Shown here piece after piece: positions 1,759-27,595 of a DNA stretch of 29,314 nt. A model generated the notes under the pieces. The model was not told the DNA's origin. It saw only the letters and a list, made by a program, of their open reading frames with translations, and did not search any database. The DNA comes from a virus. Lineage: Duplodnaviria; Caudoviricetes. Where the stretch lies: positions 1 through 29,314 of the IMG/VR virus record IMGVR_UViG_3300030430_001561; one strand, given 5' to 3'. A program made the position numbers and the translations under genes. Each line of letters begins with the position of its first letter. Position 1 is the first letter of the stretch.

Positions 1759-2060
1759 TGCCCTCATACGACTTCAAACGTGAATCTGACGGCAAAGTGG
1801 TGGAGATGTGGTACTCCATGTCCACCGTTCCCAGCATTGGTGACGTTGTGACCATCGAAGGTGAGAACTACACACGACTCGTGTCCGACTATCAGGTGTC
1901 AGCCGAGGTCGAGACCATTACCCACAAGTATCCATACGTCTCTCGCAGCATGCCAAAGAACTTGCCGGGCTGTGAGACCAACAAGAAGGGGCAACCCATC
2001 ATCTCAAGCCGCCGACACGAGCGGGAAATCATGAGCCGACACGGCCTAAAGCGGGACTAA
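1758..2060 (+). CDS. FmdB-like small protein (degenerate, zinc-ribbon cysteines absent), 100 aa
   Basis: TGATG overlap with portal stop, AGGAGG at 1746-1751; N-terminus MPSYDFKRESDGKVVE parallels the FmdB pattern MPxYxYxCxxCG; such genes commonly follow the portal in podoviruses. Confidence 0.6.
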   Translation: MPSYDFKRESDGKVVEMWYSMSTVPSIGDVVTIEGENYTRLVSDYQVSAEVETITHKYPYVSRSMPKNLPGCETNKKGQPIISSRRHEREIMSRHGLKRD

Positions 2061-2941: not shown

Positions 2942-2946
2942 CGACT

Positions 2947-2977
2947 GCCTCCCTAGTGGGGGCCTTTTGCACGAAAG
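2947..2977 (+). promoter_or_regulatory. Tandem small hairpins in the scaffold-capsid spacer (weak terminator or mRNA stabiliser)
   Basis: GCCTCCC-TAGT-GGGGGC (2947-2963) followed by CTTTT-GCAC-GAAAG (2964-2977), directly upstream of the purine-rich RBS region (AGGAAATAGAA) of the capsid gene. Confidence 0.35.
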
Positions 2978-2989
2978 CAGGAAATAGAA

Positions 2990-4387
2990 ATGGCTACATC
3001 CATTCGCAACTTCCTCGACTTCATGGACGCAACTGGCCCGGTATATCTGACCGGACCCGATGTCCTTATCAATGAAGCGGTGAAGCGTAATTACCTGTTC
3101 GGCGATTTGATTCGTGAGAAGAACCAAGCCATCCAAGGTGGCAAAGAGATCAAAGATGTTTTGATCCTCGATGATTCCTCCACGTTCCAATACTACCAGC
3201 CGAACGAAACCTTCTCGTACTCAAACCCACAAGTGTTGTCCGACATTACCGCCAACTGGCGATTTGCTATGGACCACATGACCTTTACTGATGCTGAGAT
3301 CGAACTCAACGTCGGTGGTGGGTTGTCCCGTGAAGCCACCAAGTCTGTTTACAAGGATCTCAAGCGAGCCAAAGAACAGCGAATGGTGACCTCCATGGTC
3401 AACGGGTACGAGGATGCATTGTTCCGCCCAACTCAGGGTACGAACTTTGCTGACATGGAATCTGCCACTGGTAAGACTCCATACTCCATCCCAGCATTCA
3501 TTACTGAGAACTGTGTCCAAACCTCCCTCGACGGTGGTGGGGCTGCTGGTCTCCGTGGTGGTATGCCAATCACCTCAACCACTACCGAAGGTGGCGGACC
3601 CGGTGCGAATACCACCATCTTGGGCATCGCTCCCGGCAGCAATGACCGTTGGACCAACGAGGTTGTGTTCTACGACGCGCATGCGTCGTTGGGTATCAAC
3701 TCCAGCGGTCAAATTGGTCAGGACACCGCTTCGTTCAACGCGGCGAAGATTGTGCAAGACAACACCAGTGCAAACGGTGCATTGTCTGCAAACATGCCAA
3801 TCAACGACTTTACCGCAGTGAACGTGTACGGCTTCTTGAACTCGTTTGACGAGATGTATCTTCGTCTTCAGTTCCGTCCGCCAGCCTCGTACGAGCAATA
3901 CTTTGAGAACGTCGTGTTCAACCGTCAGAAGATCCTCTGCTCCCGTGAAGGTTTGAACCTTTACAAGCAAGCATTGCGTTCCGAAAACGACCGAACCTTC
4001 GCTCCTCAAGACGTTGCTTACAACGCCCCAACCTACTCCGGCGTTCCTTTGACCTACGTTGCTCAACTCGATTCAGCCAACATCTATCCGAAGCAAAACG
4101 GAACCGGCGTTCACAACTTTGCCGCATACGACGGCTTCAACTTGGACGCTACTGCTGGTACTACCGAATTGGCTAACGAAGTCATCAACCCCGGACCTCG
4201 GTATATGTTCATCAACGGTGACTACCTCACCCCGGTTCTGCACGCCTCTCGATACATGGAGAAGCACCCAACCATGCAGCACCCAAATCAACCGTTCACT
4301 CACGTTCAGATCACGGACTCGTGGTACAACGTGGTTGCTAACTCTCGTCAACGTCACGGCATCATCGCTCCGATGATCACGGCCTAA
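2990..4387 (+). CDS. Major capsid protein (HK97 fold inferred), 465 aa
   Basis: Position after scaffold; motifs QGGKEI, aromatic E-loop-like FQYYQPNETF, TYSGVPLTY, C-terminal NSRQRHGII typical of podovirus-type capsids; own RBS and C/T-ending codon bias consistent with high expression. Confidence 0.88.
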   Translation: MATSIRNFLDFMDATGPVYLTGPDVLINEAVKRNYLFGDLIREKNQAIQGGKEIKDVLILDDSSTFQYYQPNETFSYSNPQVLSDITANWRFAMDHMTFTDAEIELNVGGGLSREATKSVYKDLKRAKEQRMVTSMVNGYEDALFRPTQGTNFADMESATGKTPYSIPAFITENCVQTSLDGGGAAGLRGGMPITSTTTEGGGPGANTTILGIAPGSNDRWTNEVVFYDAHASLGINSSGQIGQDTASFNAAKIVQDNTSANGALSANMPINDFTAVNVYGFLNSFDEMYLRLQFRPPASYEQYFENVVFNRQKILCSREGLNLYKQALRSENDRTFAPQDVAYNAPTYSGVPLTYVAQLDSANIYPKQNGTGVHNFAAYDGFNLDATAGTTELANEVINPGPRYMFINGDYLTPVLHASRYMEKHPTMQHPNQPFTHVQITDSWYNVVANSRQRHGIIAPMITA

Positions 4388-4405
4388 TAGGAAAGGACAC
4401 TTACT

Positions 4406-4891
4406 ATGGTTAGTATCGCTCCTACACAAGGTCCTCTCGGTATTCCTTTCCGAGTCGAAGATGTTGTCCTCACCGCAGACGCTGCCATTACAAAAGGGCA
4501 GGTCTGCAAACTGACGCTCGATACATCGAACTTGGTTTTTGATGCTGCTACCCCAGCAGCCGCTGCCGACTCGATTTTCGACGCTGATGCTGATGGCACT
4601 TCAGACCTTTTTCATCTTTTCGGCGTTGCCCTTGAGGACATCGCTATCAACAAAAAGGGTTCGTTCCGCTTGAAGGGTGTTGTTGAAGCACTTGGCGGCG
4701 ACACCACCGCTGCACAAAACCCTTTGAAGGTTGGTGCAGATGGCGAACTCGTCGTAGCAGACGGTAACCCTGCTGCTGATGGCGCATCCAACCAGCGCGT
4801 CATTGCTATCTCTCTTGAGACTTTGGCTGATGCCACGCTCAAGAAAGTTCTTTTCGACGGACTCAATGGGTTCGGCGCAATCGAACCCTGA
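4406..4891 (+). CDS. Capsid cement/decoration protein (DUF2190-like), 161 aa
   Basis: Directly after capsid with own RBS (GGAAAGGA); pattern A.AAI.KGQV...GVALEDIA...G...LKG...L.VGADG.L...IAISLE typical of beta-tulip cement proteins. Confidence 0.7.
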   Translation: MVSIAPTQGPLGIPFRVEDVVLTADAAITKGQVCKLTLDTSNLVFDAATPAAAADSIFDADADGTSDLFHLFGVALEDIAINKKGSFRLKGVVEALGGDTTAAQNPLKVGADGELVVADGNPAADGASNQRVIAISLETLADATLKKVLFDGLNGFGAIEP

Positions 4892-11778: not shown

Positions 11779-14390
11779 TGCCGTACTCTCGCCTCCCCAT
11801 CCCGATTCAAGGTCTTACCGACTCGTTGTCCTTCCGCCAAGCGGCAGAGGGTTTTACGAAGCGGTGCAAGAACGTGTTTCCGTTCGACGCATTTGACAAC
11901 AAGCGTCGAGTGGGTACGCGGCAGGGGTTCTTGCAACTTGCCAAACCCGGATCGACAATTCAAGGAATGATTTCAACGGAATCATTTGTGACGGCGAGTG
12001 ATGATTCAACCTCGATCGACAGGCAGTTGATCTATGTCGTAGACGGCAAAATTTTTGTGACCAATCTTTCTGCCAACCCTGTGCAGGCAACAGCAGTATC
12101 CTCAACATCTCGCAACGCCTTTGACGCAGAATACGATAGCGAAAGCACCGACCTTACCAAGCAGCCACGAGGCACGGCAAACACTGCCAGTGGTAGTCAA
12201 GTGGTTGAGGCTTTGCCTGATTTTACTGGCGGTGATTCTAGTTCAAACCAAGTTTTCAGCACAACTGCTTCTGTTGAAATGGCTGTGATGAAGCATGTCG
12301 GTCGAGCCGACGAAATCGCATCGGGCGCACAAAGAGCGGCTGGCAAGATAACCCTCGACAGCAATCTTGCTGACGGTGAAACCATTACCATTATTGACAC
12401 TGCGGGCACATCAAAGGCTTACGTTGCAAGATCCTCTGCGTCCTCGGCGTTGGAGTTTGCCATTGGCGCAGACGCTACCGCAACTGCAACCAACCTTGCC
12501 ACAAAGATTGAAAGTGCAGACGGTCACAACGGCACAATCATTGTCGAACGAGACAGCAGCCCCGATGGCGACATTTACATCACTCAAAGGGAAGCGGGTA
12601 TTGCTGGCAACACGACTATCAGTGATGGTGGGTCTGGCAACATTTCGCTGGTGCAGTTTGCAGGTGGGCTGGACGCGGCTCCACACAACTACGTTTACAT
12701 GACGGACGGCACGAAGTATGTCAAGGTTGACGTAAGCGTAACCCCTGCCAAGGTTAGCCAATGGATTGGCCCATACAAGACAGTTGTTGCCAGCAACAAG
12801 CGTGCCAAGTTGATTCAGTCGTTTGGCCCTAGAATGGTGTTGTCCGGCATTGACACCGCCCCAACCAACTGGTTCTTTAGCAAGATCAACGACCCATTTG
12901 ATTGGACCCCCGGCAGTGGCTCTGATCTTCTGGTCGATGCCTTGGCGGGTTCATCAGGTACAAAGTTTGGTCAGATTGGCGACAACATCAAAGCACTTGT
13001 CCCGGTAGGCACTAACAGCCTCGTGTTTGGCTGCACCAACTCTATGGTCATGATGACCGGAGATCCAGCGTTTACTGATGTCAAATTCCGTTCCATATCC
13101 AGAACCGTTGGCGTACTTGGCCCAAGAGCGTTTACTCCGGTTGGCGAGATGTCCAGTCTTATTGCATCTACCGAGGGCGTGTTCGGCATTGACCCCAACA
13201 CGTTTGACATCGAAAGAGGGGCAAGGGTAAGCAAGGATCGGCTAGACGGGTTGTTTGCAAGACTTGACTTTGAAAATACCAACATTGTCATGGGTTACGA
13301 CGATGCCAGAAGTGTTGCTCTTATGGCGGTGACAAAGACTGATGACGAATCGTCAAGTGAAATCTTTGCCTTGGATATGTCAAATGGCGGTTGGTGGCAG
13401 TGGCAAATTGCTACGTCTTCCATGCGAGGAATCAACTCTATCGTGAGTTTCCGACCCACGATCAGCGACCGATCTGCACCGTTGCTGGGAACGACACAAG
13501 GCCATTTGTTGTCACAACCAGAAGGCGTTGTTCTGCACCAAGACGGTGCTACTGACAGTAGTGTCGGATTTACATCTTCGTTTGCTCCGTCCACCGACGA
13601 AGGCACGGACATAGATTCCGAGTTGGTGATTGGGCCAATAAACAGCGACCCTTCACGGCGGATCCTGCTTAAAGATGTCAGGATTATTCTTGGTGAAAAA
13701 ACGGAATCCGACACGGACACTCTTGAGAGTGGCCCGTTTATGTCGTTGCTGTTTGGCGACACGGCGCAGAACGCTATTGGGTTTACGTCGGGTGGTAATT
13801 TGACCACCACCAATACTGTGATTGACGGTGGAACGTCTGCTACAAGCGGGTTTGACACAGCCCTGCTTGGCGTAAACCCACTTGATGGTGGTGATGTTGG
13901 CGAATCTACTGGTGACCAAGACAGCGATTACACGGCTATTCTTTGGGGCGGCTTGGCTTTTGACGCAGACGGAACGTATGTTCCAAATACTACAGGCACA
14001 CTGCTGAACAACACCGTGTTCTCAGGGCCGAGTAACTGGACATTGACACGAACAACAGCAGGCAAATGGCAGTTGAAGAATGGTGGAGTGGCATACTACG
14101 AAACGGAAAATGTTGTCTCTGGTTTGCCAACCACGATTCGCCTCAATCAAGACTCAACTCCGCCTTACTTGCCTGCAACAGGACATGTTGGAACTCTGGT
14201 TACCACTGGATTTGCAGAGGCACAGTCAACCTCAAACGTACAACTGGCTCGTGGTCGTTCCACAGCCAAACGCTCCAGAACCCGTGCGAGCGACATATTT
14301 GTAAAGATCGGCGCGAACTCACGCGCATGGGCATTGGAGGATGTCTCCGTTGATGTAGAGGACGGCGGACCCGTCAGGAGTGTTTCGTAA
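11778..14390 (+). CDS. Tail nozzle / DNA stabilisation protein (P22 gp10 / T7 gp12-like beta-propeller), 870 aa
   Basis: N-terminal LPIPIQGL...NVFP...GTRQGF; propeller motifs (WFFSKINDP.DW, IGDNIKALVP, ISRTVGVLGPRAF, S.EGVF); position before the ejection proteins. Confidence 0.78.
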   Translation: MPYSRLPIPIQGLTDSLSFRQAAEGFTKRCKNVFPFDAFDNKRRVGTRQGFLQLAKPGSTIQGMISTESFVTASDDSTSIDRQLIYVVDGKIFVTNLSANPVQATAVSSTSRNAFDAEYDSESTDLTKQPRGTANTASGSQVVEALPDFTGGDSSSNQVFSTTASVEMAVMKHVGRADEIASGAQRAAGKITLDSNLADGETITIIDTAGTSKAYVARSSASSALEFAIGADATATATNLATKIESADGHNGTIIVERDSSPDGDIYITQREAGIAGNTTISDGGSGNISLVQFAGGLDAAPHNYVYMTDGTKYVKVDVSVTPAKVSQWIGPYKTVVASNKRAKLIQSFGPRMVLSGIDTAPTNWFFSKINDPFDWTPGSGSDLLVDALAGSSGTKFGQIGDNIKALVPVGTNSLVFGCTNSMVMMTGDPAFTDVKFRSISRTVGVLGPRAFTPVGEMSSLIASTEGVFGIDPNTFDIERGARVSKDRLDGLFARLDFENTNIVMGYDDARSVALMAVTKTDDESSSEIFALDMSNGGWWQWQIATSSMRGINSIVSFRPTISDRSAPLLGTTQGHLLSQPEGVVLHQDGATDSSVGFTSSFAPSTDEGTDIDSELVIGPINSDPSRRILLKDVRIILGEKTESDTDTLESGPFMSLLFGDTAQNAIGFTSGGNLTTTNTVIDGGTSATSGFDTALLGVNPLDGGDVGESTGDQDSDYTAILWGGLAFDADGTYVPNTTGTLLNNTVFSGPSNWTLTRTTAGKWQLKNGGVAYYETENVVSGLPTTIRLNQDSTPPYLPATGHVGTLVTTGFAEAQSTSNVQLARGRSTAKRSRTRASDIFVKIGANSRAWALEDVSVDVEDGGPVRSVS

Positions 14391-15202
14391 TGGGACTTAG
14401 CGATTTATTTGGCGATGAGGCTGACCGCGACAGAGCAATGCGTCGGGCCTTTGAAGAATACAAGACCGAGATGACGCAGTATCTAGCGGACTTCGAGGTT
14501 CGGTTTGGCGACATTATTTCGATGGTCGAGTCAGATCGAGACGTTGATATTGAAGCATTTACCCAAGGGTTCCAATCAGCAATCGACAACTATCAGGAGG
14601 GTGTCATTGACCAACTGGCGGCAGGGTTTGGGGAAGCACGGGGCCTCATGGAGCAAGGGTTTGACCAAACCCTCCAAGACATCGAACGGGCATCAGAGGC
14701 GGCGAGCCTCCGCTCGTTGGCACAAGGGGCGTTGTCGGGCGTGTCTGGGACAGCATTTGGACAGGCGCAGACTGAAGCAATCCGTGCCGAAGGTGAGAGG
14801 GAACGCAGGCGAGCGGATGAATCGTTCCGTCGAGAGATGTCCAATCTTGCTCTTAGCGAGGCTGGGGCGTTAGCCGAAGCAGAGGGCAATATGACCAACC
14901 TGATGGTGCAACGCACCACAGGGGAAAGTGATCTGAGACGGGCGTACACCGCATCAATTAGTGGCCTGCAATCTACGCTGGCTCAATCCTTGCTTGGTGG
15001 CGGTCAAAGCATCGCACAGGCTGGGTTTGACACTGGCATGGCTCGTGCGCAGAACATTGGATCTGGCTTCAACCTTGGGCAAGTATTGGTCGGAGCCGGT
15101 CTTGCCGCTGCCACTGGCGGGATTGGCGGAGCGTTGGGTCTCAGTGGTGCGGCAGTCAAAGGTCTGACAGCAGGCGTGGCATCAGGAGCGATGAATCAAT
15201 GA
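14390..15202 (+). CDS. Putative DNA ejection/pilot protein, 270 aa
   Basis: MGLSDLFG start, Ala/Gln helical body, Gly/Ala hydrophobic C-terminus; position after nozzle as for P22 gp7-type proteins. Confidence 0.6.
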   Translation: MGLSDLFGDEADRDRAMRRAFEEYKTEMTQYLADFEVRFGDIISMVESDRDVDIEAFTQGFQSAIDNYQEGVIDQLAAGFGEARGLMEQGFDQTLQDIERASEAASLRSLAQGALSGVSGTAFGQAQTEAIRAEGERERRRADESFRREMSNLALSEAGALAEAEGNMTNLMVQRTTGESDLRRAYTASISGLQSTLAQSLLGGGQSIAQAGFDTGMARAQNIGSGFNLGQVLVGAGLAAATGGIGGALGLSGAAVKGLTAGVASGAMNQ

Positions 15203-15909
15203 GCAACTTTAACTACATGGACATGGCAAAAGACCAGTTTCGACAAAAAATCGAAACCACCAAGGCACTTGAAGAGCAAAAGGCTGAGTTCGAGAAGAAA
15301 GCAGAAAAGCGAGGCAAAAGAAAAGCCAAACGAAAAGAGCAGCGTGCAACCATGTTTGCAGGGGCTGTCGAGGCATTTGCTGCCGGTTTGCAAGCAGAGG
15401 GCCTTCGCCGACACAAAATGGGCTTGAGTGGTGCTGGGTTTGCTGAGGCATTTGCTGCTGGTGTTGGGGATGTTGTGGATTTTAGCAAACTGCAACGTGC
15501 TAGAAAAAGGTCAGCCATTGCTCAAAAGTTGGGATTTGTGCCTGCCGAAAGCGATTCAGTAGAGAAAGATTTGGTGGCTCTTGTCAATGCTTTGACGAAA
15601 GGTGAGGCCACGAAAAATTCACAAATGGCTGTAGACCCGAAGATTGATGTTGAAGTCGATGGTGCTGAAGATAAACCCGGACCATTTGAGTCGCCCCAAG
15701 AAGGTGGCGTGACCGAACCAACTGACCAAGAAATGTTGAATAAGGCTGCGGGTGAAAATCAAACGCCCAAGACTCAAAAAACAGACAGCCCCGTTCTCAA
15801 CAACATATTGACCCCTGAAGAGATTGCGTCCATGGGCCTGCAAGAAGAATCTCCGGGGGTGTTTGTAGACTTCACCGGACAGGTGGTAGACGTAAGGAAG
15901 CCTAAGTAA
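15199..15909 (+). CDS. Putative internal virion/ejection protein, 236 aa
   Basis: Basic coiled coil, Ala/Gly amphipathic segments, acidic disordered tail; coupled in the ejection cluster. Confidence 0.5.
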   Translation: MSNFNYMDMAKDQFRQKIETTKALEEQKAEFEKKAEKRGKRKAKRKEQRATMFAGAVEAFAAGLQAEGLRRHKMGLSGAGFAEAFAAGVGDVVDFSKLQRARKRSAIAQKLGFVPAESDSVEKDLVALVNALTKGEATKNSQMAVDPKIDVEVDGAEDKPGPFESPQEGGVTEPTDQEMLNKAAGENQTPKTQKTDSPVLNNILTPEEIASMGLQEESPGVFVDFTGQVVDVRKPK

Positions 15910-17321
15910 TGAGTCAGTTCAATTACCCCAAGACGGAAATGGGCAACCTGTTGCGTAACGGATTTGCCAACCGCAAGCGTTCTGAGACGTTGGCTGGTGA
16001 CAAACAACTCGCGTCTAACAACCCACTCGATTCGTACAAAGCCCTGTCGGACGGCAACTACAAGGGCCTTGAGGGCATCCAGTACGGCACTGCTGGCGGT
16101 TTGCCCGCAGCCATGATGCCTGACGGTCACGTTGTTCTTATTAGTGAAGGCGAAATGATTGCCGGTGTGCAGCAACGCGAGAAGCGTCGGCGGCAAATGG
16201 TTGAAACCATGGCTGACGAAATAGACCGCCGCGAGTTCGGCAAGAAATACAAAGGTCACTACGACAGCACGCTAGAGACGATGGAGATTGACGATGCCAC
16301 TGCCGGTCTTCTTCAAGCCCGGTACGAGGCAGACCCCGGCTCGGCCATCAACTTCTTGACCAAATACAAAATTGACGATGCGGATGAAGTCAAGCGAATG
16401 CAGCGTGACCTTGCCAAAGAACAGCAAGAGCAGTTGTACGCACGCCGAGTTAGTCGTGTCACAGCGTTTGGCAAATTGATGGAAGAATCGTCTGTTGGTA
16501 CTCCAAGCCAAGTTGCATCACGAAAGTCAGCCGCTGCAATGTTGCCCGGCCACTCCTTACGCTTGGCTCAGGTTGGGGCAGACGCTTCATCGTTCTACCT
16601 GCAAGACGATGCTGCTTTGACTGAATTGACCAGCATCACATCCTTGCTCAACGAGGGCGTGGTCAAAACCGCACGCGATGCGTTTATCAACCACGGTGAC
16701 GCACCAGACACCTTTGTTGACAACCAAGCGTTTGCACCTTTGCGTGATGCGTTGACCCAATTGTCTAGTCAGATGGGCGTGACCTTTGATCCAACCACAG
16801 TTGGGCTGGCAATGGTGATGCGTGACTCGGTTGGTCCAGACGTACGCAACACCCCCGTGTATCAAAGCCTGTTCTCAACAAGCGTCAGCCAGCAAGTTGA
16901 AGCCATCGGTGTACCACCAGTCACCGAAGAATTCTCAGACATGGTAAGGCAGGTCCAGCGAGACGAGTCCACTTTCTCGTCTGCTCAAATCCGTGAAATT
17001 TCTCTTCGGGACCAGATGTCGCGACTTGGCGTGCTTGCTCGCAATTTCTTGATCGCACAAGGTCGTGGTGGCGAAATTACCAACAGTGCAGTTGGGGATA
17101 TCAACACTTTGTTCCAAGCGGTGCTGGACAATGACCCGGTTGCTCAGGCCACCGTGTCCCAAGTTCTTGGACAAGACGCACGAAAAATTGCTGCCGACTA
17201 CCTTCAAGGTGGGGACTTGCCCGGCACGTTTGATGCTAGGCTTCCATCGACTACTGAAAGTGATCAAAAGCCTAAAGGAAAAGTGGTTCAGCCATTCGGA
17301 CCGAGGTCACGGCCTAAATGA
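15909..17321 (+). CDS. Putative internal virion/ejection protein, 470 aa
   Basis: Helical protein coupled (TAATG, ATGA) between ejection genes and the giant protein; no catalytic motif recognised. Confidence 0.5.
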   Translation: MSQFNYPKTEMGNLLRNGFANRKRSETLAGDKQLASNNPLDSYKALSDGNYKGLEGIQYGTAGGLPAAMMPDGHVVLISEGEMIAGVQQREKRRRQMVETMADEIDRREFGKKYKGHYDSTLETMEIDDATAGLLQARYEADPGSAINFLTKYKIDDADEVKRMQRDLAKEQQEQLYARRVSRVTAFGKLMEESSVGTPSQVASRKSAAAMLPGHSLRLAQVGADASSFYLQDDAALTELTSITSLLNEGVVKTARDAFINHGDAPDTFVDNQAFAPLRDALTQLSSQMGVTFDPTTVGLAMVMRDSVGPDVRNTPVYQSLFSTSVSQQVEAIGVPPVTEEFSDMVRQVQRDESTFSSAQIREISLRDQMSRLGVLARNFLIAQGRGGEITNSAVGDINTLFQAVLDNDPVAQATVSQVLGQDARKIAADYLQGGDLPGTFDARLPSTTESDQKPKGKVVQPFGPRSRPK

Positions 17322-20300
17322 CCGACATCGACACCTATCTTTCGCAGATTCAACGGCTTGAAGACTCTCTTCTGCCGCCTGATCGGTACTTGGAGATACA
17401 AAAGCAGCAGTCGGAGGGCTTGCGTACCTTGTTCGGCCAGCCTGCCAGCGGGTCTGTGCAGGGTGCTTCATCAGCATTGGAATCTACGATCAAGCAGCAG
17501 TTGGCAAACGCTTACACGGGCCAAGAACTGCTGGAATACTCGCCGGGTCAATACAAGACCCACGCCGCGAGGGAGATGTTCCGCAAGACCTACGACCAAC
17601 GGTTTAGCGAACTGACGAAAGACCTTCAAGATGGCGATGTGCCGGGCTACATCGAGGCGTTCTGGGAGGGCAACACCTCGACTATGGAAGACTCCGTGCT
17701 TCAGTTTGTTGAGCATGGTTTGTCAACGAAAGACTTCAAGTCGGACGAAGAGCGGCAGGCATACGTCGATGCAATGCAACGAGCATCCGCCGCGTACAAG
17801 GGCATCATTGGATCTGGCGGCACTGGAAAGCAAGCGGCCCTGACGTTTGGTGAGACTCTCAACGAGATCACTGGTACTGGTGCAGCGTTTGCTGGTGCTG
17901 GTGCGTTGGCTACGGCTTGGACTGGCCCCGGTGCGTTGGTTGGTGCGAAGATTGGATTTCTTGTTGGCTCTGCGGTGGGTATGGGTCGGCTTGCTTTCCG
18001 TCTTTACGATGCGACCGAACGTGAGTATGAAAGCGAACTGGTAAACGAAAACATCAAGCGAGCCACCGAAGGCCGCGAGATGATGAAATACAACCGCAAC
18101 GAGGTGGTGAAGCGAGCGTCCACTGCGGTTGCAACTGAGGGTTTGGTTGAAGCGGGCAGTGCTTTGGCGTTTGGCTTTGGCGGCAATGCGGCGATACGAA
18201 TGTTGCGACGAGGTGCTGGCGACGTTGCAGATGACGCTGTCAAGGCAGCAACCAAAGCAGCAATCAGAGACACGCAAAGCGTAACCGGACGGGTGCTGCG
18301 GACAGCCGGTGAAGAGATTAAGAAAAAGGTCGGTCACGGCATGGTGACTGAAGGCTTTGAAGAGGGTGCAGCCAACATCCTGAACTCGTTGGCCGCGAAT
18401 GCAATCTCAGAGATTGACATGGATCGCCTTGACTTTGGCGAAGCAGGCCACGACGCATTGATTGGTGCGATTGTTGGCGGTGGTTTGGCAGTTGGAAACA
18501 ACGTGGCTTACGCCCCAATTCAAGCGGGTCTCAGAAGAAAAGCAAGAAAAGAACTAGGCACTCGCATCCGAACTGGTATGGCCGCTGCCAGAGACACCAT
18601 GGAAATGGAGGAGAATCTCGAAGGCGACGTTCAGGCATTTGCTGAAAAGGACGATGCAGCCCAACAAGAAGAGATTGCTGGATTCCAAAGCGAGCGAGCC
18701 AAGTTGGAGGCCGAGCGTGAATCTACACGGCGGCAAAGAATCGAAAAAGCCGCTGAGTTTGGGGAGGCCCGCAAGGCTGGTGAGGAAACCGATGGCTTGC
18801 TTGAAGAATACCAGTTGCTCGAAGAAAAAGAAGCGACCCTAACCTCCGAGATCAATCGTATTGACACCGGCCTTGCTGCTCGCCGAGGTGTTCTTGGCGT
18901 TCCGGTAGCGGGTGGTGAGGCAGCGTCTCAAACTGTTGAGGAGACACTTGACCGTGTAGGCAAACGAAGCGGGGGAACGCTGACTGAGGCAGAAAGCCTT
19001 ACTGAAGATGAGCAAGCAGCGGTGGACATGGGCCGTGACATGGGTGTCGAGGTGGTTGTTTTTGAGGGAAGCCAGCCTTCCTTCTACTCAAACCGAACAA
19101 CCAAAGACGGCAAAGGGGTGCTGTTCCTAAACCGAGATGCAGTTACTTCAAAGGCAGACGGTCAGTCAGAAGTGTTGCACGAGATGGTTCACTACATCCA
19201 GCACACCAACCCTGAGTTGTATTCAGAAATTCGTGCGGAACTCGACGAGTTGTCAATCTTGTCTGCTGGCATGGACTACGTCGCGGTTGGAGAAGATGCA
19301 AGGCCAACCGACAAGCGGGCGGCAACTGCTGCGGTGGCTGTCGCAAACGGCCTGACCTTGGGCAATTCATTGGAAGAGGTTGAGGCTGTTGCACGACTTG
19401 AGGCAGAGGGCGTGGCTCGTGCTTTGGAAAAAGGCAAGCGGGCAAACAAATCTCGGATCGACAACCTGCTGGTCCGTCTTGGACTGGGAACCAAAGAGGA
19501 GACCGCAGCCCGGAATGTTCTTGGCCTGTTGAAGCAAGCCAATGAAGATGGCCGGATGGTTGCCCCAACCGACAAAGTCACCGGCCTCGGTGCTGCTGCT
19601 GTCCGCTTGAGCGAGCAGGCAACTAGCAAAGATATCGCAGAAGAGAAGGCGGAGAAAGCGTCCCAGACCGCACTGCAACCTTTTTACGACCGAATAGATG
19701 CAGCCGGAGCCGCCGAGACACCCGCTGCTGACGAGTCTTCAGCCGAGGCTGCCGAGGTTCCAGAAGGTGACCTGCCAGACATCGACGAAGACATTGACGT
19801 TGACATCTCAGAGAACCGCTTGCGTGCGACTGCTGAAGGCAACCGCATTGCAGTCACCGAGACCCCAGAGTTTAAGAACTGGTTCGGCAACTCCAAGGTG
19901 GTTGACGAGCAAGGCCGTCCCATCATCATGTACCACGGTACAAGGTTTGAGATGGCGGACCTGCCCGGCGGCACATCTATGTCGTTTGACCCGTTGCTGG
20001 GTGACGGGGGCATGCACCTCACCTCACACCCACGAGTTGCCGCCAAGTTTGCTACCCGCTCAATATCTGAACAGATTCTGAAGCGTGAACTACATGGCGA
20101 GGTTCTCAACCACTACCAGATTGAAAACTATCTTGCTCCTGAAGGTGGCCGGGTCTACCCCCTGTACCTACGCATTGAGAAGCCACTGACCATCCGTGAC
20201 ACAGGGTCTTGGAACAGCCAAGAGTCCTTTGAGGTTATTGCTGACTTTGCTGGGGTTCCACGAGTCCGGGCGTACCGGATCGGTGCTGAAGGATTGAATG

Positions 20301-23300
20301 CCGGGTCTCAGATTGCCTTGGCTGAATTGCAAGCGGAGATTGACCACGCAAGAAAGATTGGCGACACGCACACGGAGAACTTGAAGACCAGAGACTTGCA
20401 CCACCTGCAAATGCACATGGCAAACGGTGGGTACACGGCGGCGGACATGGCTCACGGCTTCCCTGTTCACCCCGGCCTGAAGGCCATGAACTTTGGCTTG
20501 GCCCATCTTCTTCGGTCGCTTGGGTACGACGGAGTGCGGTATCTCAACCGATACGAAATGCCCTTGGGCGTGGCTGACACCAAAAGGTTCGGCCACCAAC
20601 AAGGTAGCACTGTTGCAGAGTTTCAATCAAGGTCCGAAGCCAAGTTCAACAAACGTAGCCCGTACAACAACACTCGATACGGCAAGGCATTGACTGACGA
20701 AGAGATGCAGGAACTGCTCGACGAAAACGGAGTCGAGGAAGACATCTGCTACTACTGCATTGATGCCAATCAAGTCAAGTCGGCCACCGCCAACAAGGGT
20801 GGCTACCGCTTGGACTCTGACGATATCAGTGAAAACCGTTCGGTCAGCAAGAAGAAGAAGGCACAGTCGAAGAAGGCCAAGGACCAAGCAGACCGAGCGG
20901 CCCCCGGCCACATCATGCCGGGTGTTGAGAAGGCCCTGTCCGCCGTGACTCTGCTTGACTTGGAACGAGTTGTTCCCGAAGCGGACAAGACCGGCGGCGA
21001 GCCTATGAAGTTGCGGAACGGTCACCCGCATCGCATGGCTGACGGCAGATCCTTCAATCAGATGGAGCCGTCTACCACCATTACCCTGCCACCTTTGACC
21101 GAAGAAGATATGCAGCAGGCTCACGAGGCTGCGGTGTTTGCCATCGGCGGCGAGTCTGAGTTTGAAGCACTCAAGGCCCGCAATGCCATGAAGGTCAAAC
21201 TTGAGCCGAGCGTCCCAAACTTGCAGGTGGGCAACAAGCGTGACGGCATTGACCCCAGTACCCAAGGCGTGCTTGGCACGGAAGAATACAACCGGCTGCG
21301 TGAGGCTAACCCACCAGACCCAGAAGCAGAACCAACTGCGATCTCCGCCGACCTAGTTCACAACGAAGACGGCACACCGGCAATCATTGACCCAGAGTTT
21401 GTCAACGAATCTTTGGCACTGCCCGCCGCCCAGCGGTTCTGGTACGAGACCTTTGGCGAGGACGTAGCGACATTCCTACCAGACATCTTTGGTGCGCACA
21501 ACGACTCACTGCTTCTTGCCAACTTGATCTCAGCCACCTCTGCACAAACTGCGGTCGAGCAGAACATGCGTCGGGGCCTGAGCATCTACGCATCCACCAA
21601 GTCAGGTCAGCCCTCGTTTGTTGGCATGCCCATCCCAACCTCAGTGCAGCAGGCTCAGTTGCTGGAGGAGTACGGTCTTGATGGTCAATACAAGACCGGG
21701 TCATTTGCCCCAACCTTGATGCTTGGTCTGGGTGTGTTCAACGAACAACGCGGCGTGCCGCTGACCGTGCTTGATGTGATCATGTCTCGCTTCTTCAGAC
21801 TGCCTCAGTCGGTGTTCTCCGATCCGATCATGTATCGGTACGGACACACAGTGATGGCGAAGATCGCACAGATCGTCAACCAGAAGCGGGCGATGACTCC
21901 AGAGTATGTTGAGGCCCAAGGGCGTATTCGCAACGGTACGGCCACCGATGCTGATGTGATGTTGGTTGAGGCTGTCCGTCCTTGGCAGGTGCAGGCCGTG
22001 CTTTGGTCCAACCGTGCTGACGATTCAGGCACGTTCTCCGATGCAATGAAGTTGATTCGTGAGGACCTGATTGCCGTGGGCATCGAGCCTGACGATCAAG
22101 GTGGGTTCTCCACCGAGCAGTTGACATCTCCAGAAGCATTGCGTGCCATCGAAGCAGCGTCTGCTGTTCGCTCCGGCACAGTCACATCTCTTCAGGTGGG
22201 ACAAGTTGCAGGCCAAGCGTCGTTGCAGAAGGACAACCTCGTGGCACTGGCTTATGCGTTGCTCAACTCAGATGTGTTGACCGACGCCCAGAAGCAAACG
22301 CTCCGCAACAAACTGAGCAAGGTGACCCAGCAAGACATCAACCTGTTGAAGGAGATTGTTGGCGGTCGCAACCGTTTGACCCCCGCCAAGAACGCTCGCG
22401 TTGGATTGGAACTCGGATCGTACGAGGCGTTTGTGGATGCTGCTCTGGTACAGGATGCGGTCACAGAAGCCATGTCTCGTGTTGCAGCGGAAGGCGGAGT
22501 AGTCGCAGATGTCAAGATCGGGAAGGGCATGGGCGAGACCCTTTCCGTCCGCATTCCGGTCGCTGCCTTTGGCTTGGGCTACAACGCCACGGCTGCCCTG
22601 CCCGCAGCGGAGCAGGCGGGTCTTGACAAGTCAGGACTGTACCGCACAGCCTCGATGGGCTTGATGTCAAACAACAAGGTCTTGGGTGAGGGAACCTACG
22701 CGATTGGTTCGGCAGGTGTCCGTGACGGATTCATCACCCCCGAGGAACACATCCTTGCACCGGGTTTGACGGCAGCAGAGTCCGTGTTCGGTCTGAAGTT
22801 GCTGGGCATTGCCTTGGGACAACGTGTTGTGCGCGCTCACCGGGTGGTTGAAGCAGGGCGAGAGGGTTCTACACCAGCCTTGGCCGTGTTTGTGCCGGGC
22901 CAGTTTGTTCGCCAAGAGGATATGGCAGCCGTTGCCGGTGCGATTGAACCGCACGGTATGCAGTTGATTGTCCGTGCAGTAACCAACGGTTCTTTGGTCA
23001 CCGCCATCCATGCCGATGGTTCAGCCGAGGCTATCACCGACGATGCCACCGATGCCTTTGCCGACGCGATGGCCGCTCGATACACAGGTGACTTGATTGT
23101 TGAAGATATCGCGTTAGACTATGTCGAAGAAGAGACTGGTCTGCGTGGTGACGGCACTGACTCCCCGGCCAAAATCCGGGCCGCCGAAGACAAGTTCATT
23201 CGTCAGATTGCACGCGAGGATGCCTCGCCTAATTCTGACTGGTCCACGAAATTATCAAAGGATGCAAAAAATGATTTCGCCCAAGCCGGTATCACCACCC

Positions 23301-26300
23301 AAGCAGACTTCGCCAAGATTCTCGTCCCCGACCTCAAAGATAAGCAGACACGCGAAGCGTTTGAGCGAGCGGCTCAACTGCCGCTCAAGAGCCGGAAGCG
23401 AATCGCTACAGCACTTGGACGCAGTCGTGCATACCAACTGCATGTGCAGCGTAACCAGATAAGGCAACTGGTTGCCGACTATGTGGTCAAGACCGCAGAC
23501 CCGGTAGCCAAACTTGAACAGCATCTGGTCAAGGCTGCCACCGCTGGTGAAGGGGTTCTGTCTGCGGGTCAAGCAGAGTTCGCTACGTCCCTGATCCAGA
23601 ACGAGACCAGCCAGTCTGAGGACATTTCAGAGAACCGACCCGTGTTCTATCACGGCTCTGATGCCACCTTCGATCAGACGGAGGAAGGCAATCTATACCT
23701 TTCCAAAGATCCAGCGGTGGCAGCACAGGTCGGGTCGAACGTGCGGCGGTTCAACATTACCGGCCCGGTCGAGTCGTTCCTGCCAGAGGACCGAGATGCT
23801 CGGGCCTTTGCCGTGCTGCGATCCGTCTACAACCAAACGGTGGGTACAGACACGTTCCCAACACTGGATGCGTTCATCGTGGCTTTGGACAACGGGACCG
23901 TGTTCCAAACCTTGGCCGATGGAGGGACGCAGGAGACCGTGGTCAACGCATTGATCGACCAGTCTGGTTCGACGGGCGTGCTGATTCCTGACGCGGTCGG
24001 CGGTGCAATCACTGAGACTCTGGTGGTCAGCAACCCAGCAGCGTTGGCTGAGGTGACCGAGGATATCTCTGAGAACCGTGAAGCCCCCAAGACCAGAACC
24101 CAGTTGCAAAACAGGGGCAGGGCAAACCTCAACAAACTCGACAGACACCGTGCTGGTCCGATGTTCGCCATGATCCTTGGTGATGTTGAGAAGACCCAGA
24201 AGGCACTGCTTGGCAATCGTTTGGGTACAAGTCCCGGTCTTGCTGCCACCGACACAGCCCTTGGCGTGATTGAAATCATGGAGCAACTGTCTGCTGCCGA
24301 CGCGGATGCCGTGGCTGAACAACACCTGATTGAGTTGCGAGACGCTACTCGGGCCGCTGGCAAGCGGGCTGCTGATGCAGCCAAGTCCAGAGCCGAGATG
24401 CGAATCGCTGCGGAGAAAAGAAAGAGTGACGAGCAGGCAGTCCGTTTGCGGCAGCAGCGTGTTGACGCTTTGCTCAAAGCAGCCGAGGACAAGAAGAGGG
24501 TTGTCGGCAACCTCAAAGATCGGCTTGCCAATGTCAAAGAGCAGTTGGCGGACGAGAAAGTCAAGAACCGTGCAGCCTTGCAGGCACAGCGTGAGGAGTT
24601 TGAGACCGCCCTCAACGAGTTGGATGCTGACCGGCTGGCCCGCACTGAACGTCTACTGCGGAACATGCGTGAACGATCCGAGCGTGACTTGGAGGCATTG
24701 CAGTCCAAGTACGAGGCTCGTGCGCAGGTCGAACAGATTCGTCGTGAGGCGGTCGAGCGATTCCGCAACATCCTGATTGCACAAGTCATCAAGCGTTTGC
24801 CCAAGTCAGAACGCGGTGCATTCTTGAAGGCACTGTCCAAGCCCAACATCACGCTTGATCGGTTTGAGAAGATCGCCGCCCGCATCCACGAGGCTTCGGC
24901 AACCTATGAAGTTCGTGCCGCCAAGGACAAGTTGGCACGGCAGGCCAAGCGGCTCAAGAAGCGAAAGATGTCGCAGGCCACACGCACGGCTATCCAAGAG
25001 AAGTTGGAAGAAGCCAAACGTCTGCTGGATGTGCAAGCCGCCAAGGCCAAGGCAGCCCAAGAGGGATTGTCTGAGCAGGAGCAGCGTGTCCAGAACGCCA
25101 TGGAGTTGCGGCGTGTGGTCAAGTTGGCGAAGAACGAGATGGGTGAGGCGGAGGCCGCGTATCAGGCTGACCGTGAAGCCTACATGGACACCAAGAACGA
25201 GCGTGGTGCATTGATCCGTCAGCGTGTCGAAGCCATCATCGAGGCGGTATCCAAGATGAAAGATGCCAAGTCAGTGGGCGATGTGGTCGGAGACTCCAGA
25301 GAGACATCGTTCTTGGGCTACCTTGGCAAGCGAGGAACGCTTGACCTCAAGGCCGTCTTGGATGAACTGGGCCTGACCAATGAGCATTCGATCTTGGCCG
25401 CATCCGAGTCGGGCATGCTGTCTGCAAGACGTGAGATTCTGCTGGTGTTGGACGAGGCAGCCAAGGACGCAGGGTTTGAGAGCCTGACCGAACTGGTGGC
25501 TCACACCTCTGGCAGTAAGGGCTTGACCGAACGCAACTTTACCTCGTTCACATACCGGGACGAAAGCGGCAAGTCCAAGACCATACAGATCACGCTGGGT
25601 CAGGCACTCAAACTGCTGGCGTTTGATGACCACACCTTGGAAGAGATTGCCAGCCAAGCCACCAACCGCAAGGGCGTGATTGAGAAGCCGATGAAGTTGG
25701 ACTTCTCGCTGGCCGAGCGTGAGGGCAAGATACAAATCTCGGGCAAAAACTTGGTCGAGGACATCATCAGGTTCCGTGCGCAGGCCGCCGACAACATGCT
25801 GGTGGACAAACGGCTCGCCAAGTTTGTGCAGCGTGCCAAGAAGTTGCGAGAACAGAACGTCCGGCCCGCTGGCATGGCAGCCTTGTACCGTCTGACCGGC
25901 ACGATGCCTGAGCAGATTCCCGGCTACGAACCACGCAAGGTACGTCGGGAGATGGGCGATCCAGAGACAGCACTTGACGGCAACTCCTCGCAGCAAACCC
26001 TTCGCATGGCACAGGGTGCGTCGTTCACCAAGGAGCGAACCGGCGGAGCAACCATCCGAGTCACTGACTTCATGATGGATTACTTTGAGTCGGTGGATGC
26101 TGGCTTACGTTTGGCATTCATGGGTGAGCCAACCCGTGTGATCTGGGCAGCCATCACAGACTCCGAAGTGCAGACTGAACTTGAAAACAAGTTGGGAACT
26201 GACGGCTACCGCAACGTCAAGACCCACATCGGTTATGCCCTTGGTCTGGTTGACCCGACCGGCGGCGACAGCCTTCAGGGTGACATCACATCTGTTGGTG

Positions 26301-27595
26301 CATCCGCCTTGATCTCGTTCAACATCAAGACCTTCTTCAAGGTTCTGTTTGGTGGCATCAACAACCTGCAACTGGATGAAACATCGACGGTGGACATTTC
26401 CAAAGGCACGGCACGAGCCATGAAGTTGTTGATGTCCGGCAGGTTCTCCGAGTTCTATGAGAGCGAGATTCTCGCACGCAACGGATACTTCTGGGATCGT
26501 GATCACTCCAGCCCGATTGACCGGCGGGTCACCTTCACCCGTGATGACGGCATCGCCAACGTCAAGGATGTGGTCAAGTTCAACGAGGTGATGTACCGGG
26601 GTGTCGCCAAGTTCTACGAGGGCTTGCAGGCTTTGGCGGTTGGGGATCGCACCCTTGCCAAGCGTAAGGCGCGCGAAGGCTTGCGAGCCATCCGAGGTAT
26701 GGGTCGTGCCATCCCCGTGCTTCGACTGCTTGACCAGTTCATCGTGGCAAGTGCTGTGCTGTCCAAAGCAGAGCCTGACGCTATCACCGACGAGGCTTTG
26801 CACGAAGCAGAACTCATGGTTCGCAACACCCAGAACACCTCGTCTGCACTGGACGATGCACAGTACGCGGCGGTTGCTCGGGTCAATGGCGGCCTGCCAG
26901 CCCTGCTGACCACATTCTCATCCGACCCTTTGAAGACTGCATCCCGTATGCGTGAAGCCCAGCCGGGTACGCAAAGAGCCAAGCGGATCGCGGTGGCCAT
27001 GGGTGGTAACGCAGGTATCAGCATCCTTGCCAACCACCTGCACCTGATGCTGATGCTCGCCCTGCTTGACGATGATGATGAGGCCGACGAGTTGCTCGCC
27101 GCCTACGAAAAGGCCAAGGTCGCTGATGGTTACGACAAGGTTGTGATTGAAGAAGTGATCGGGCGAACCGGACCTCTGGGCTTCATCTTCGGACGGCCCG
27201 TCTCGTTCCTCTACAATCAGGTAGAGAACGCAATGACTGTGGAGGGGGCCAAGGTCTCACCACGCACGGCCAACCAGTTCGTCGAAGCCATGCTTCCGAT
27301 TGGTATCGCACCCGTTGCCCAGATTCCTGCTCAAGTCATCGACGTTGCGTTCAACAGTGGCAAAGACCCGAACCGGATGTACGAGAACTTTGAACAGTTG
27401 ATGGTGCAGTTGCTTCAGGTTGTGTTGGGTCTGCCCATCGGACCAATGAAGCCGTACCTCGACGCGGGCTTCACCGAGACCAACACGGCGGAGATCAGGT
27501 CAGCCGAGTACGGGCTGCGGAACACGTTGGGCAAAGAGGTTCTCAAGGAACACGAGAAGGTTCTCAAGAAGGGCCGGGCCGCCACTAGGCAATAG
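17318..27595 (+). CDS. Giant polyvalent internal virion/ejection protein, 3425 aa: Gly-zipper membrane region, HExxH metallopeptidase, ART-like module, glycosylase-like/SAM-lyase-like module, second ART-like module, coiled coil and helical C-terminus
   Basis: Gly-zipper (GAAFAGAGALATAWTGPGALVGAKIGFLVG), EGFEEG motif, HEMVH at aa 621-625, FKNWFGNSKVVDEQGRPIIMYHGT...GYDGV...QVKSATAN (ART-PolyVal pattern), WY...SATSAQ...N...VLDV...QAVLW, FYHGS...LYLS; last gene of the structural operon. Confidence 0.85.
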   Translation: MTDIDTYLSQIQRLEDSLLPPDRYLEIQKQQSEGLRTLFGQPASGSVQGASSALESTIKQQLANAYTGQELLEYSPGQYKTHAAREMFRKTYDQRFSELTKDLQDGDVPGYIEAFWEGNTSTMEDSVLQFVEHGLSTKDFKSDEERQAYVDAMQRASAAYKGIIGSGGTGKQAALTFGETLNEITGTGAAFAGAGALATAWTGPGALVGAKIGFLVGSAVGMGRLAFRLYDATEREYESELVNENIKRATEGREMMKYNRNEVVKRASTAVATEGLVEAGSALAFGFGGNAAIRMLRRGAGDVADDAVKAATKAAIRDTQSVTGRVLRTAGEEIKKKVGHGMVTEGFEEGAANILNSLAANAISEIDMDRLDFGEAGHDALIGAIVGGGLAVGNNVAYAPIQAGLRRKARKELGTRIRTGMAAARDTMEMEENLEGDVQAFAEKDDAAQQEEIAGFQSERAKLEAERESTRRQRIEKAAEFGEARKAGEETDGLLEEYQLLEEKEATLTSEINRIDTGLAARRGVLGVPVAGGEAASQTVEETLDRVGKRSGGTLTEAESLTEDEQAAVDMGRDMGVEVVVFEGSQPSFYSNRTTKDGKGVLFLNRDAVTSKADGQSEVLHEMVHYIQHTNPELYSEIRAELDELSILSAGMDYVAVGEDARPTDKRAATAAVAVANGLTLGNSLEEVEAVARLEAEGVARALEKGKRANKSRIDNLLVRLGLGTKEETAARNVLGLLKQANEDGRMVAPTDKVTGLGAAAVRLSEQATSKDIAEEKAEKASQTALQPFYDRIDAAGAAETPAADESSAEAAEVPEGDLPDIDEDIDVDISENRLRATAEGNRIAVTETPEFKNWFGNSKVVDEQGRPIIMYHGTRFEMADLPGGTSMSFDPLLGDGGMHLTSHPRVAAKFATRSISEQILKRELHGEVLNHYQIENYLAPEGGRVYPLYLRIEKPLTIRDTGSWNSQESFEVIADFAGVPRVRAYRIGAEGLNAGSQIALAELQAEIDHARKIGDTHTENLKTRDLHHLQMHMANGGYTAADMAHGFPVHPGLKAMNFGLAHLLRSLGYDGVRYLNRYEMPLGVADTKRFGHQQGSTVAEFQSRSEAKFNKRSPYNNTRYGKALTDEEMQELLDENGVEEDICYYCIDANQVKSATANKGGYRLDSDDISENRSVSKKKKAQSKKAKDQADRAAPGHIMPGVEKALSAVTLLDLERVVPEADKTGGEPMKLRNGHPHRMADGRSFNQMEPSTTITLPPLTEEDMQQAHEAAVFAIGGESEFEALKARNAMKVKLEPSVPNLQVGNKRDGIDPSTQGVLGTEEYNRLREANPPDPEAEPTAISADLVHNEDGTPAIIDPEFVNESLALPAAQRFWYETFGEDVATFLPDIFGAHNDSLLLANLISATSAQTAVEQNMRRGLSIYASTKSGQPSFVGMPIPTSVQQAQLLEEYGLDGQYKTGSFAPTLMLGLGVFNEQRGVPLTVLDVIMSRFFRLPQSVFSDPIMYRYGHTVMAKIAQIVNQKRAMTPEYVEAQGRIRNGTATDADVMLVEAVRPWQVQAVLWSNRADDSGTFSDAMKLIREDLIAVGIEPDDQGGFSTEQLTSPEALRAIEAASAVRSGTVTSLQVGQVAGQASLQKDNLVALAYALLNSDVLTDAQKQTLRNKLSKVTQQDINLLKEIVGGRNRLTPAKNARVGLELGSYEAFVDAALVQDAVTEAMSRVAAEGGVVADVKIGKGMGETLSVRIPVAAFGLGYNATAALPAAEQAGLDKSGLYRTASMGLMSNNKVLGEGTYAIGSAGVRDGFITPEEHILAPGLTAAESVFGLKLLGIALGQRVVRAHRVVEAGREGSTPALAVFVPGQFVRQEDMAAVAGAIEPHGMQLIVRAVTNGSLVTAIHADGSAEAITDDATDAFADAMAARYTGDLIVEDIALDYVEEETGLRGDGTDSPAKIRAAEDKFIRQIAREDASPNSDWSTKLSKDAKNDFAQAGITTQADFAKILVPDLKDKQTREAFERAAQLPLKSRKRIATALGRSRAYQLHVQRNQIRQLVADYVVKTADPVAKLEQHLVKAATAGEGVLSAGQAEFATSLIQNETSQSEDISENRPVFYHGSDATFDQTEEGNLYLSKDPAVAAQVGSNVRRFNITGPVESFLPEDRDARAFAVLRSVYNQTVGTDTFPTLDAFIVALDNGTVFQTLADGGTQETVVNALIDQSGSTGVLIPDAVGGAITETLVVSNPAALAEVTEDISENREAPKTRTQLQNRGRANLNKLDRHRAGPMFAMILGDVEKTQKALLGNRLGTSPGLAATDTALGVIEIMEQLSAADADAVAEQHLIELRDATRAAGKRAADAAKSRAEMRIAAEKRKSDEQAVRLRQQRVDALLKAAEDKKRVVGNLKDRLANVKEQLADEKVKNRAALQAQREEFETALNELDADRLARTERLLRNMRERSERDLEALQSKYEARAQVEQIRREAVERFRNILIAQVIKRLPKSERGAFLKALSKPNITLDRFEKIAARIHEASATYEVRAAKDKLARQAKRLKKRKMSQATRTAIQEKLEEAKRLLDVQAAKAKAAQEGLSEQEQRVQNAMELRRVVKLAKNEMGEAEAAYQADREAYMDTKNERGALIRQRVEAIIEAVSKMKDAKSVGDVVGDSRETSFLGYLGKRGTLDLKAVLDELGLTNEHSILAASESGMLSARREILLVLDEAAKDAGFESLTELVAHTSGSKGLTERNFTSFTYRDESGKSKTIQITLGQALKLLAFDDHTLEEIASQATNRKGVIEKPMKLDFSLAEREGKIQISGKNLVEDIIRFRAQAADNMLVDKRLAKFVQRAKKLREQNVRPAGMAALYRLTGTMPEQIPGYEPRKVRREMGDPETALDGNSSQQTLRMAQGASFTKERTGGATIRVTDFMMDYFESVDAGLRLAFMGEPTRVIWAAITDSEVQTELENKLGTDGYRNVKTHIGYALGLVDPTGGDSLQGDITSVGASALISFNIKTFFKVLFGGINNLQLDETSTVDISKGTARAMKLLMSGRFSEFYESEILARNGYFWDRDHSSPIDRRVTFTRDDGIANVKDVVKFNEVMYRGVAKFYEGLQALAVGDRTLAKRKAREGLRAIRGMGRAIPVLRLLDQFIVASAVLSKAEPDAITDEALHEAELMVRNTQNTSSALDDAQYAAVARVNGGLPALLTTFSSDPLKTASRMREAQPGTQRAKRIAVAMGGNAGISILANHLHLMLMLALLDDDDEADELLAAYEKAKVADGYDKVVIEEVIGRTGPLGFIFGRPVSFLYNQVENAMTVEGAKVSPRTANQFVEAMLPIGIAPVAQIPAQVIDVAFNSGKDPNRMYENFEQLMVQLLQVVLGLPIGPMKPYLDAGFTETNTAEIRSAEYGLRNTLGKEVLKEHEKVLKKGRAATRQ
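19802..19819 (+). repeat. DISENR peptide repeat copy 1 (aa 829-834)
   Basis: GAC ATC TCA GAG AAC CGC; follows an acidic linker and precedes ART-like module 1. Confidence 0.95.
20822..20839 (+). repeat. DISENR peptide repeat copy 2 (aa 1169-1174)
   Basis: GAT ATC AGT GAA AAC CGT; directly ends ART-like module 1. Confidence 0.95.
23621..23638 (+). repeat. DISENR peptide repeat copy 3 (aa 2102-2107)
   Basis: GAC ATT TCA GAG AAC CGA; immediately precedes PVFYHGS of ART-like module 2. Confidence 0.95.
24062..24079 (+). repeat. DISENR peptide repeat copy 4 (aa 2249-2254)
   Basis: GAT ATC TCT GAG AAC CGT; ends ART-like module 2 and begins the coiled-coil C-terminal part. Confidence 0.95.

Follow-up and report, generated by a model that had tools for sequence, protein, structure and literature searches.

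The virus record IMGVR_UViG_3300030430_001561 (Duplodnaviria; Caudoviricetes), whose 29,314 bases (completeness about 76%) form the window analysed here, encodes a polyvalent protein of 3425 amino acids (aa) in which the hexapeptide DISENR occurs four times. DISENR is probably the junction peptide of this phage lineage and the cut site for the protein's own predicted zinc peptidase. Comparison of related proteins makes a clear case for a junction peptide that evolves in concert and at which cassettes are exchanged.

The gene (17318..27595, + strand, from the open reading frame (ORF) call) carries the exact motif at aa 829-834 (copy 1, 19802..19819), after an acidic linker and at a site with a counterpart in orthologues; at aa 1169-1174 (copy 2, 20822..20839); at aa 2102-2107 (copy 3, 23621..23638), where it opens a lineage-specific cassette; and at aa 2249-2254 (copy 4, 24062..24079), where it opens the fixed C-terminal segment. 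All are on the + strand. Translation of the ORF confirmed the positions and codons in the original prediction, which had been made from the letters of the DNA alone, and a six-frame scan of the window tolerating one mismatch gave only these four copies, all in the giant protein, in agreement with the claim that other proteins of the window lack the motif. The recurrence of DISENR is real and well above chance. The runner-up hexamer in the protein scored 18, compared with 30 for DISENR (BLOSUM62), and neither 2000 whole-protein shuffles nor 2000 shuffles in 40-residue blocks produced a hexamer with four copies (maximum three). Nine of 11 further cluster members (94-100% identical) retained all four copies, and the remaining two were fragments of 486 and 642 aa with zero copies. 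Serine is encoded by TCA, AGT, TCA and TCT in the four copies, and identical residues shared identical codons in 16 of 36 comparisons (16.2 expected from the codon usage of the gene). As codon identity is no higher than codon usage predicts, it is the peptide and not the DNA that is conserved, as had been proposed.

The gain of a cassette at the motif can be followed in the closest orthologues (P0005-P0008, 52-61% identity). In these, D[IV]SRN[RAM] occupies three sites, which correspond to copies 1, 2 and 3/4, and the segment between copies 3 and 4 (cassette 3; 141 aa, 23639..24061, + strand) is missing. In BLAST alignments to the window protein they match aa 3-2107 (P0008 from aa 65) and resume at aa 2249, and in P0005, P0007 and P0008 both alignment blocks terminate on one shared D[IV]SRNR copy. 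P0006 is an exception, with breakpoints at 2070 and 2236. The window protein is about 25 residues longer than the orthologues upstream of that single copy. These alignments show that cassette 3 was gained, with two motif copies bounding it where the orthologues have one. The insertion was compared as protein only, because DNA of lineage B, the closest, was not obtained; among the loci returned by pattern scans, 2 of 2 in viral contigs and 4 of 17 in metagenomes were DNA of the family, all from lineage C. In two more distant proteins, 39 residues lie between two motifs at the place of cassette 3 (P0010, aa 2113-2151; P0220, aa 2084-2122), which may represent a slot left empty or a spacer that is cut out.

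The fourth residue of DISENR is E in all copies of the window lineage (A) and R in the sister lineage (B). Further lineages, taken from cluster members and from near-complete phage records reached via the capsid protein, have spellings of their own: [IVL]-S-[KRAS]-A-R in P0186 and P0010, [IV]-A-K-A-R in P0220, L-x-S-R in P0136, x-[FY]-A-R in G004, G005 and G008, [LM]-E-A-R in P0227, G010, G011 and G014, and L-[ED]-S-R-[KR] in G009 and G012. The C-terminal segment was present in 11 of the 23 records searched and in 9 of the 10 that were at least 90% complete. At three positionally orthologous sites in five lineages, 5-mers from different sites of one lineage scored 18.5 on average, versus 11.4 for the same site in different lineages (permutation p = 0.0003), a pattern that was missing from the flanking 5-mers. 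Thus compared, each lineage is shown to respell all its motif copies in concert, and this lineage-specific spelling goes beyond what the original prediction contained. A blind repeat search ranked the motif top in 6 of 12 mapped lineages (A, B, I, J, L and G014) and lower in E and G; it missed the motif in C, D, F, H and K, whose spellings were read by eye. One further record, G006, encodes a capsid protein related at 47% and a 3255-aa HExxH protein (L102:4666-14430, - strand) that did not match the family and in which no clear motif was found.

When twelve family proteins were split at their motifs, a fixed N-terminal and a fixed C-terminal segment were each found in all twelve, together with several cassette classes in varied combinations. 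Homology blocks crossed a motif without a partner motif in only 3 of 75 cases, compared with a mean of 48 (minimum 25) over 2000 random cut sets. Motif-bounded cassettes of lineages H-M include methyltransferase-like, PBECR5 and unnamed ones. In the homologues the motif was conserved and cassette borders coincided with it; neither of the sequence patterns named beforehand as evidence against the idea, a family without the motif or borders lying elsewhere, was seen. The suggestion that the motif is also a junction for cassette exchange held up in that gains and swaps in relatives map to it; in this gene the copies do not form a recombination repeat at the DNA level.

The four copies divide the window protein into segments of 828, 340, 933, 147 and 1177 aa, exactly as first described. 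The fixed N-terminal segment (aa 1-828, 17318..19801, + strand; homologous in 12 of 12 family proteins) comprises a Gly-rich hydrophobic stretch, a predicted coiled coil, the peptidase and the acidic linker. The 'membrane region' that had been placed here corresponds to the Gly-rich stretch, which is indeed present and is of moderate hydrophobicity only (highest 19-residue mean 1.46, at aa 205-223). Cassette 1 (19820..20821, + strand) is an ART-PolyVal ADP-ribosyltransferase (ART) domain with insertions (PF18760, E 8e-12), so that the ART-like label for the 340-aa segment is borne out by a Pfam match above the cut-off. It has YHG at aa 872-874 and GYDG at aa 1069-1072; of the H-Y-D triad, read by eye, H (in YHG) and D1071 are present, and the strand-2 Tyr position seems to be His (GMHLT). 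Copy 2 follows in the register where other ART-PolyVal proteins show I-R-F-S, I-T-E-S or I-R-K-S.

Cassette 2 (about 930 aa, 20840..23620, + strand) has homologues in 6 of 12 family proteins and transfers between lineages as one unit. Its first half lies near DUF7178 clusters, with a recognition score under the tool's mark, and homologous cassettes match DUF7178 weakly. The structural model was poor (predicted local distance difference test, pLDDT, 44.6), with generic ferredoxin-like matches at model residues 665-750 (Z about 5-7); nothing in the PDB matched it at an E value of 0.001 or lower, and BFVD gave only other large phage proteins. No S-adenosylmethionine lyase or glycosylase, the two activities first suggested for this segment, was among the 50 best VIA matches, which excludes neither. 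Cassette 3 contains a small ART-PolyVal-like domain. It was recognised as such by language-model features alone (0.95; the family occurs on 12-24% of neighbouring cluster members) and had no ART match in Pfam; the ART-like label of the 147-aa segment thus stands on the former and not on the latter. By eye H and Y of the triad are present, with STG at the GYDG position. The fixed C-terminal segment (about 1170 aa, 24080..27595, + strand) is the most conserved part, homologous in 12 of 12 family proteins, and gave no convincing match in Pfam, PHROG or NCBIfam. Searches against PDB sequences gave nothing useful.

The predicted enzyme is a zincin-like metallopeptidase domain (MPTase) at about aa 555-745 (18980..19552, + strand). 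The HExxH motif, noted from the start in the first segment, lies at aa 621-625 (H621, E622 and H625), and the third zinc ligand is predicted to be E697 (E697-G698). An AlphaFold2 model of aa 541-851 (mean pLDDT 74.7) has a three-stranded sheet, the HExxH helix and a later Glu-bearing helix, the arrangement given for MPTases in the text covered of Iyer et al. 2017 (PMC5512222); the acidic linker and DISENR copy 1 fall below pLDDT 50. HE..H and the downstream EG were conserved in 16 of 16 aligned peptidase domains, with G011 reading HExxxH, a variant that the same text also describes. Zincins were among the top rows of the fold comparison (HtpX, Z 5.3; lugdulysin, 5.0; PprI, 4.8; abylysin, 4.5; ArdC, 4.2), and the sole profile match was to PHROG 87 metallo-protease (E 0.027). 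Aa 555-745 are predicted to adopt a zincin fold with catalytic residues kept throughout the family, and peptidase activity is likewise a prediction. Profile comparison with an ArdC MPTase gave no match (probability 0.4%), a locus search using the peptidase alone found no relative, and a prediction of the complex between the peptidase (aa 555-745, zinc included) and 32 residues spanning copy 2 scored 0.00 and was counted neither way. In G011 (L094:3978-16991, + strand), the record with HExxxH, the motif copies are most variable at the residue before A-R (E, A, N or R). Lineage H (G005, L081:11782-13218, - strand; also G004 and G008) has a second HExxH domain as a motif-bounded cassette preceding the C-terminal segment.

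Taking these features together, we infer that the giant protein would be packaged in the virion as a large ejection protein whose fixed segments handle delivery. The zinc peptidase would cut every junction and so free the ART and other cassettes from the scaffold to act on the host, and this could take place in the head or after injection. The bond cut is most likely that between Glu and Asn (DISE-NR), to judge from the register of related junctions and from head proteases that cut after Glu. A new cassette would become releasable once the motif of the lineage flanks it on both sides, and a shift in peptidase specificity would force every motif copy to follow. For the initial proposal that DISENR is a recognition site, the border position, the conservation of the peptide and the gain and swap of cassettes lend support; cleavage, the enzyme responsible and release specifically after injection keep the status of inference.

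In 8 of 9 relatives the motif occurred in no ORF but the giant one, no protease family was recognised elsewhere in the window, and the 105 ORFs of three near-complete relatives (G003, G008 and G011) included none with a match to a maturation-protease family. Such confinement, and the lack of a recognised protease, favour the resident enzyme. The exception is G010, in which a 582-aa gene directly upstream (L091:2483-4228, + strand) has one MEARR at aa 403, possibly a substrate in trans or a chance occurrence. G003 has an ArdC-like gene (ArdC-N and MPTase-PolyVal; L076:320-1246, - strand) that was not seen in the other two genomes scanned.

Junction motifs are not peculiar to this family. In unrelated ART-PolyVal proteins (111 usable of 146), the peptide that follows the end of the ART domain recurs upstream of its start in the same protein, with a signal of 7.66 versus a null of 4.74 (maximum 5.84 in 10,000 permutations). 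Some proteins of the set are fragments or may have variant sites, and the signal could be too high if tandem ART copies went unnoticed. The unrelated ART-PolyVal proteins among P0002-P0158 (for example, P0016, P0130, P0140 and P0151) each have a spelling of their own after the end of the ART domain, such as I-R-F-S, I-T-R-S, I-N-E-S, I-L-R-Q or I-V-R-N-P. In the examples given, those of I-x-E-S type have no HExxH, and head proteases like that of T4 may cut them. The large, ART-rich P0013, P0014, P0018 and P0028 have a longer linker repeated between modules, of the DExKHPR / NHDxxGRF type.

Several observations weigh against cleavage by the resident peptidase. The signal in the ART-PolyVal set was equal in proteins with HExxH (60 proteins, 7.68) and without it (51 proteins, 7.64), so that junction motifs need no resident HExxH, and among the matches listed many unrelated ART-PolyVal proteins read I-x-E-S or K-S, which for those proteins suggests separate head proteases. 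As 78 of the 105 ORFs of the three relatives had no Pfam match and the window covers about 76% of the genome, there is room for a separate protease. The zincin matches were weak (Z 4.1-5.3; rmsd 2.2-4.5 and 59-112 residues aligned for the best, at Z 4.2-5.3; Foldseek E 0.08 or worse) and Pfam MPTase-PolyVal (PF18818) gave no match to the window peptidase; the part covered of Iyer et al. 2017 describes 12 MPTase clades (PMC5512222), so a single Pfam model would not have to match every clade. Spellings cluster along the peptidase tree, where kin share labels. R606 (lineage A) versus E (lineage B), one of two charge reversals between these lineages in the peptidase and the sole candidate specificity switch, does not track the motif in other lineages. 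The distant-lineage patterns were picked by eye, and three degenerate sites were added once alignments had been seen. These choices, along with an error of one residue in 2 of the 58 positions placed by hand, mean that the shared small-residue/Arg pair (56 and 55 of 58) was in part created by the selection itself. Cultured phages gave no match to the C-terminal part, and none of them could be recognised as a relative. Furthermore, the N4 virion RNA polymerase (vRNAP) has an MPTase and yet is packaged uncut (PMC5512222).

It is rather unlikely that DISENR is a cut site for some other enzyme, either a separate phage maturation protease or a host protease, with some other target for the resident zincin, such as the cell wall or a host protein. 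This would suit the equal strength of junction motifs in ART-PolyVal proteins without HExxH and the several junctions that read I-x-E-[SND], as the head proteases of T4 and SPN3US are described as cutting after Glu (PMC5694885, as far as covered), and a cell-wall role is proposed for the phi24B gp47 metallopeptidase in the portion covered of its report (bioRxiv 10.64898/2026.04.10.717836). However, portal, scaffold and capsid carry no motif, and the ArdC-like gene of G003 was the only candidate recognised in the window or the 105 ORFs. A conserved host enzyme would also be hard to reconcile with the residue before the small-Arg pair, which in related phages can be E, R, K or F. Slightly less probable again is a docking signal that stays uncleaved, in which the motif would attach to a partner (for example, the ejection channel, a chaperone or the peptidase-like domain) so that each module can be packed or threaded. 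A repeated border peptide evolving in concert suits any single binding partner, and in N4 vRNAP the MPTase region is needed for encapsidation of a protein that is packaged uncut (PMC5512222). Against docking, the catalytic Glu and zinc ligands were kept in all 16 divergent rows, and the 39-residue inter-motif segments of lineages D and E would be easier to understand as excised spacers than as docked modules.

It is very improbable that cassettes are exchanged through the motif as a stretch of DNA, by microhomology or recombination, with the peptide as a by-product. Cassettes are gained at the motif, and codons were shared more often than expected in three of the seven related genes (9 of 13 vs 4.6, 23 of 50 vs 14.8 and 26 of 52 vs 16.8), so short DNA homology at the motif may aid exchange; but the remaining four genes had little or no excess, and the codon counts and serine codons of the window gene largely refute recombination as the sole cause. 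There is next to no likelihood that the motif is merely the conserved tail of the ART-PolyVal domain. Copy 2 does lie at a conserved position past the ART C-terminal extension, but copies 1 and 3 follow non-ART segments and lineages H-M have motifs around non-ART cassettes. Cutting by the resident peptidase thus has the largest share of the probability.

The giant gene is the last of the structural module, with which it is co-oriented; portal, capsid, cement and tail-related ORFs lie upstream on the same strand. From this position the 3425-aa protein is likely to be a large ejection protein of a podovirus-like phage. The head module (16..4891, + strand), recognised from portal, capsid and cement matches, consists of the portal (16-1758), a 101-aa ORF, a likely scaffold (2060-2941), the major capsid protein (2990-4387) and cement (4406-4891); within it neither the DISENR motif nor a maturation protease was recognised. 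Three ORFs without the motif (270, 236 and 470 aa; 14390..17321, + strand) precede the giant gene and are likely to encode smaller ejection proteins, judging by position and a Gly-rich hydrophobic C-terminus. A RusA-like resolvase and a replication-initiation-like gene (27585-28603, - strand) are convergent with the giant gene and overlap its last codons.

In RNA-virus polyproteins a resident protease cuts repeated junction motifs at domain borders within one ORF. The protein described here differs in being encoded by a structural gene of a dsDNA phage, in having a metallopeptidase and variable cargo, and in that its cleavage is predicted. The consensus of the T4 head protease is I/L-x-E, which the I-S-E of DISENR fits. 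The head proteases T4 gp21, phiKZ gp175 and SPN3US gp245 recognise a short motif, cut after Glu at sites repeated in virion and ejection proteins, and are free-standing enzymes with capsid and portal among their substrates, according to the part covered of PMC5694885. Unlike their substrates, the motif here is in one protein, and R, K or F replaces E in sister lineages.

Polyvalent proteins were defined by Iyer et al. 2017, who proposed autoproteolysis by the MPTase and noted that P1 DdrB is processed and N4 vRNAP uncut (PMC5512222); the zincin domain has been known since then as the commonest domain of such proteins. The window protein is a phage polyvalent protein in this sense: it is very large and combines an HExxH peptidase with ART-PolyVal above the cut-off and a second ART-like cassette, and relatives add PBECR5 and methyltransferase-like cassettes. 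Unlike the proteins as described in the text covered, it has a defined, lineage-specific junction peptide onto which cassette exchange maps, its peptidase has no Pfam MPTase-PolyVal match and its fixed segments match no LPD model. It resembles N4 vRNAP and P1 DdrB in being a multidomain protein with an MPTase and, from gene position, virion-associated; no RNA polymerase module was detected in it, and the section covered of PMC5512222 describes no repeated site code for those two. Podophage phi24B likewise has a polyvalent protein, gp47 (2811 aa), that contains a metallopeptidase, occurs in virions and has been put forward as the ejection protein; as far as the covered part of its report goes, the peptidase is proposed to degrade peptidoglycan and no internal junction motif is described (bioRxiv 10.64898/2026.04.10.717836). 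No sequence match was seen between it and the window protein, the search of cultured phages having covered the C-terminal part. The main text covered of Iyer et al. 2017 (PMC5512222) names no cleavage site or junction motif, the portion covered of Iyer et al. 2022 (PMC9503650) adds nothing on sites, and no description of such a junction code was found in the literature searched, which did not extend to the FTP supplements of Iyer et al. 2017 that could bear on the point.

The motif gives objective borders for unnamed cassettes, which are candidate anti-defence effectors, and from the family come precise predictions of sites and fragment sizes as well as naturally occurring variants in specificity (E versus R in sister lineages). 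Exchange bounded by the motif shows how cargo can be swapped without breaking the delivery scaffold. There is about an even chance that in this family the podophage ejection protein is a genuine polyprotein, in which a built-in zinc peptidase reads a short code particular to the lineage and changes along with it, and that any domain between two copies of the code is a separately released, injected effector. If so, the code would serve generally to divide phage polyvalent proteins into the products they really yield and to compile effectors directly from sequence.

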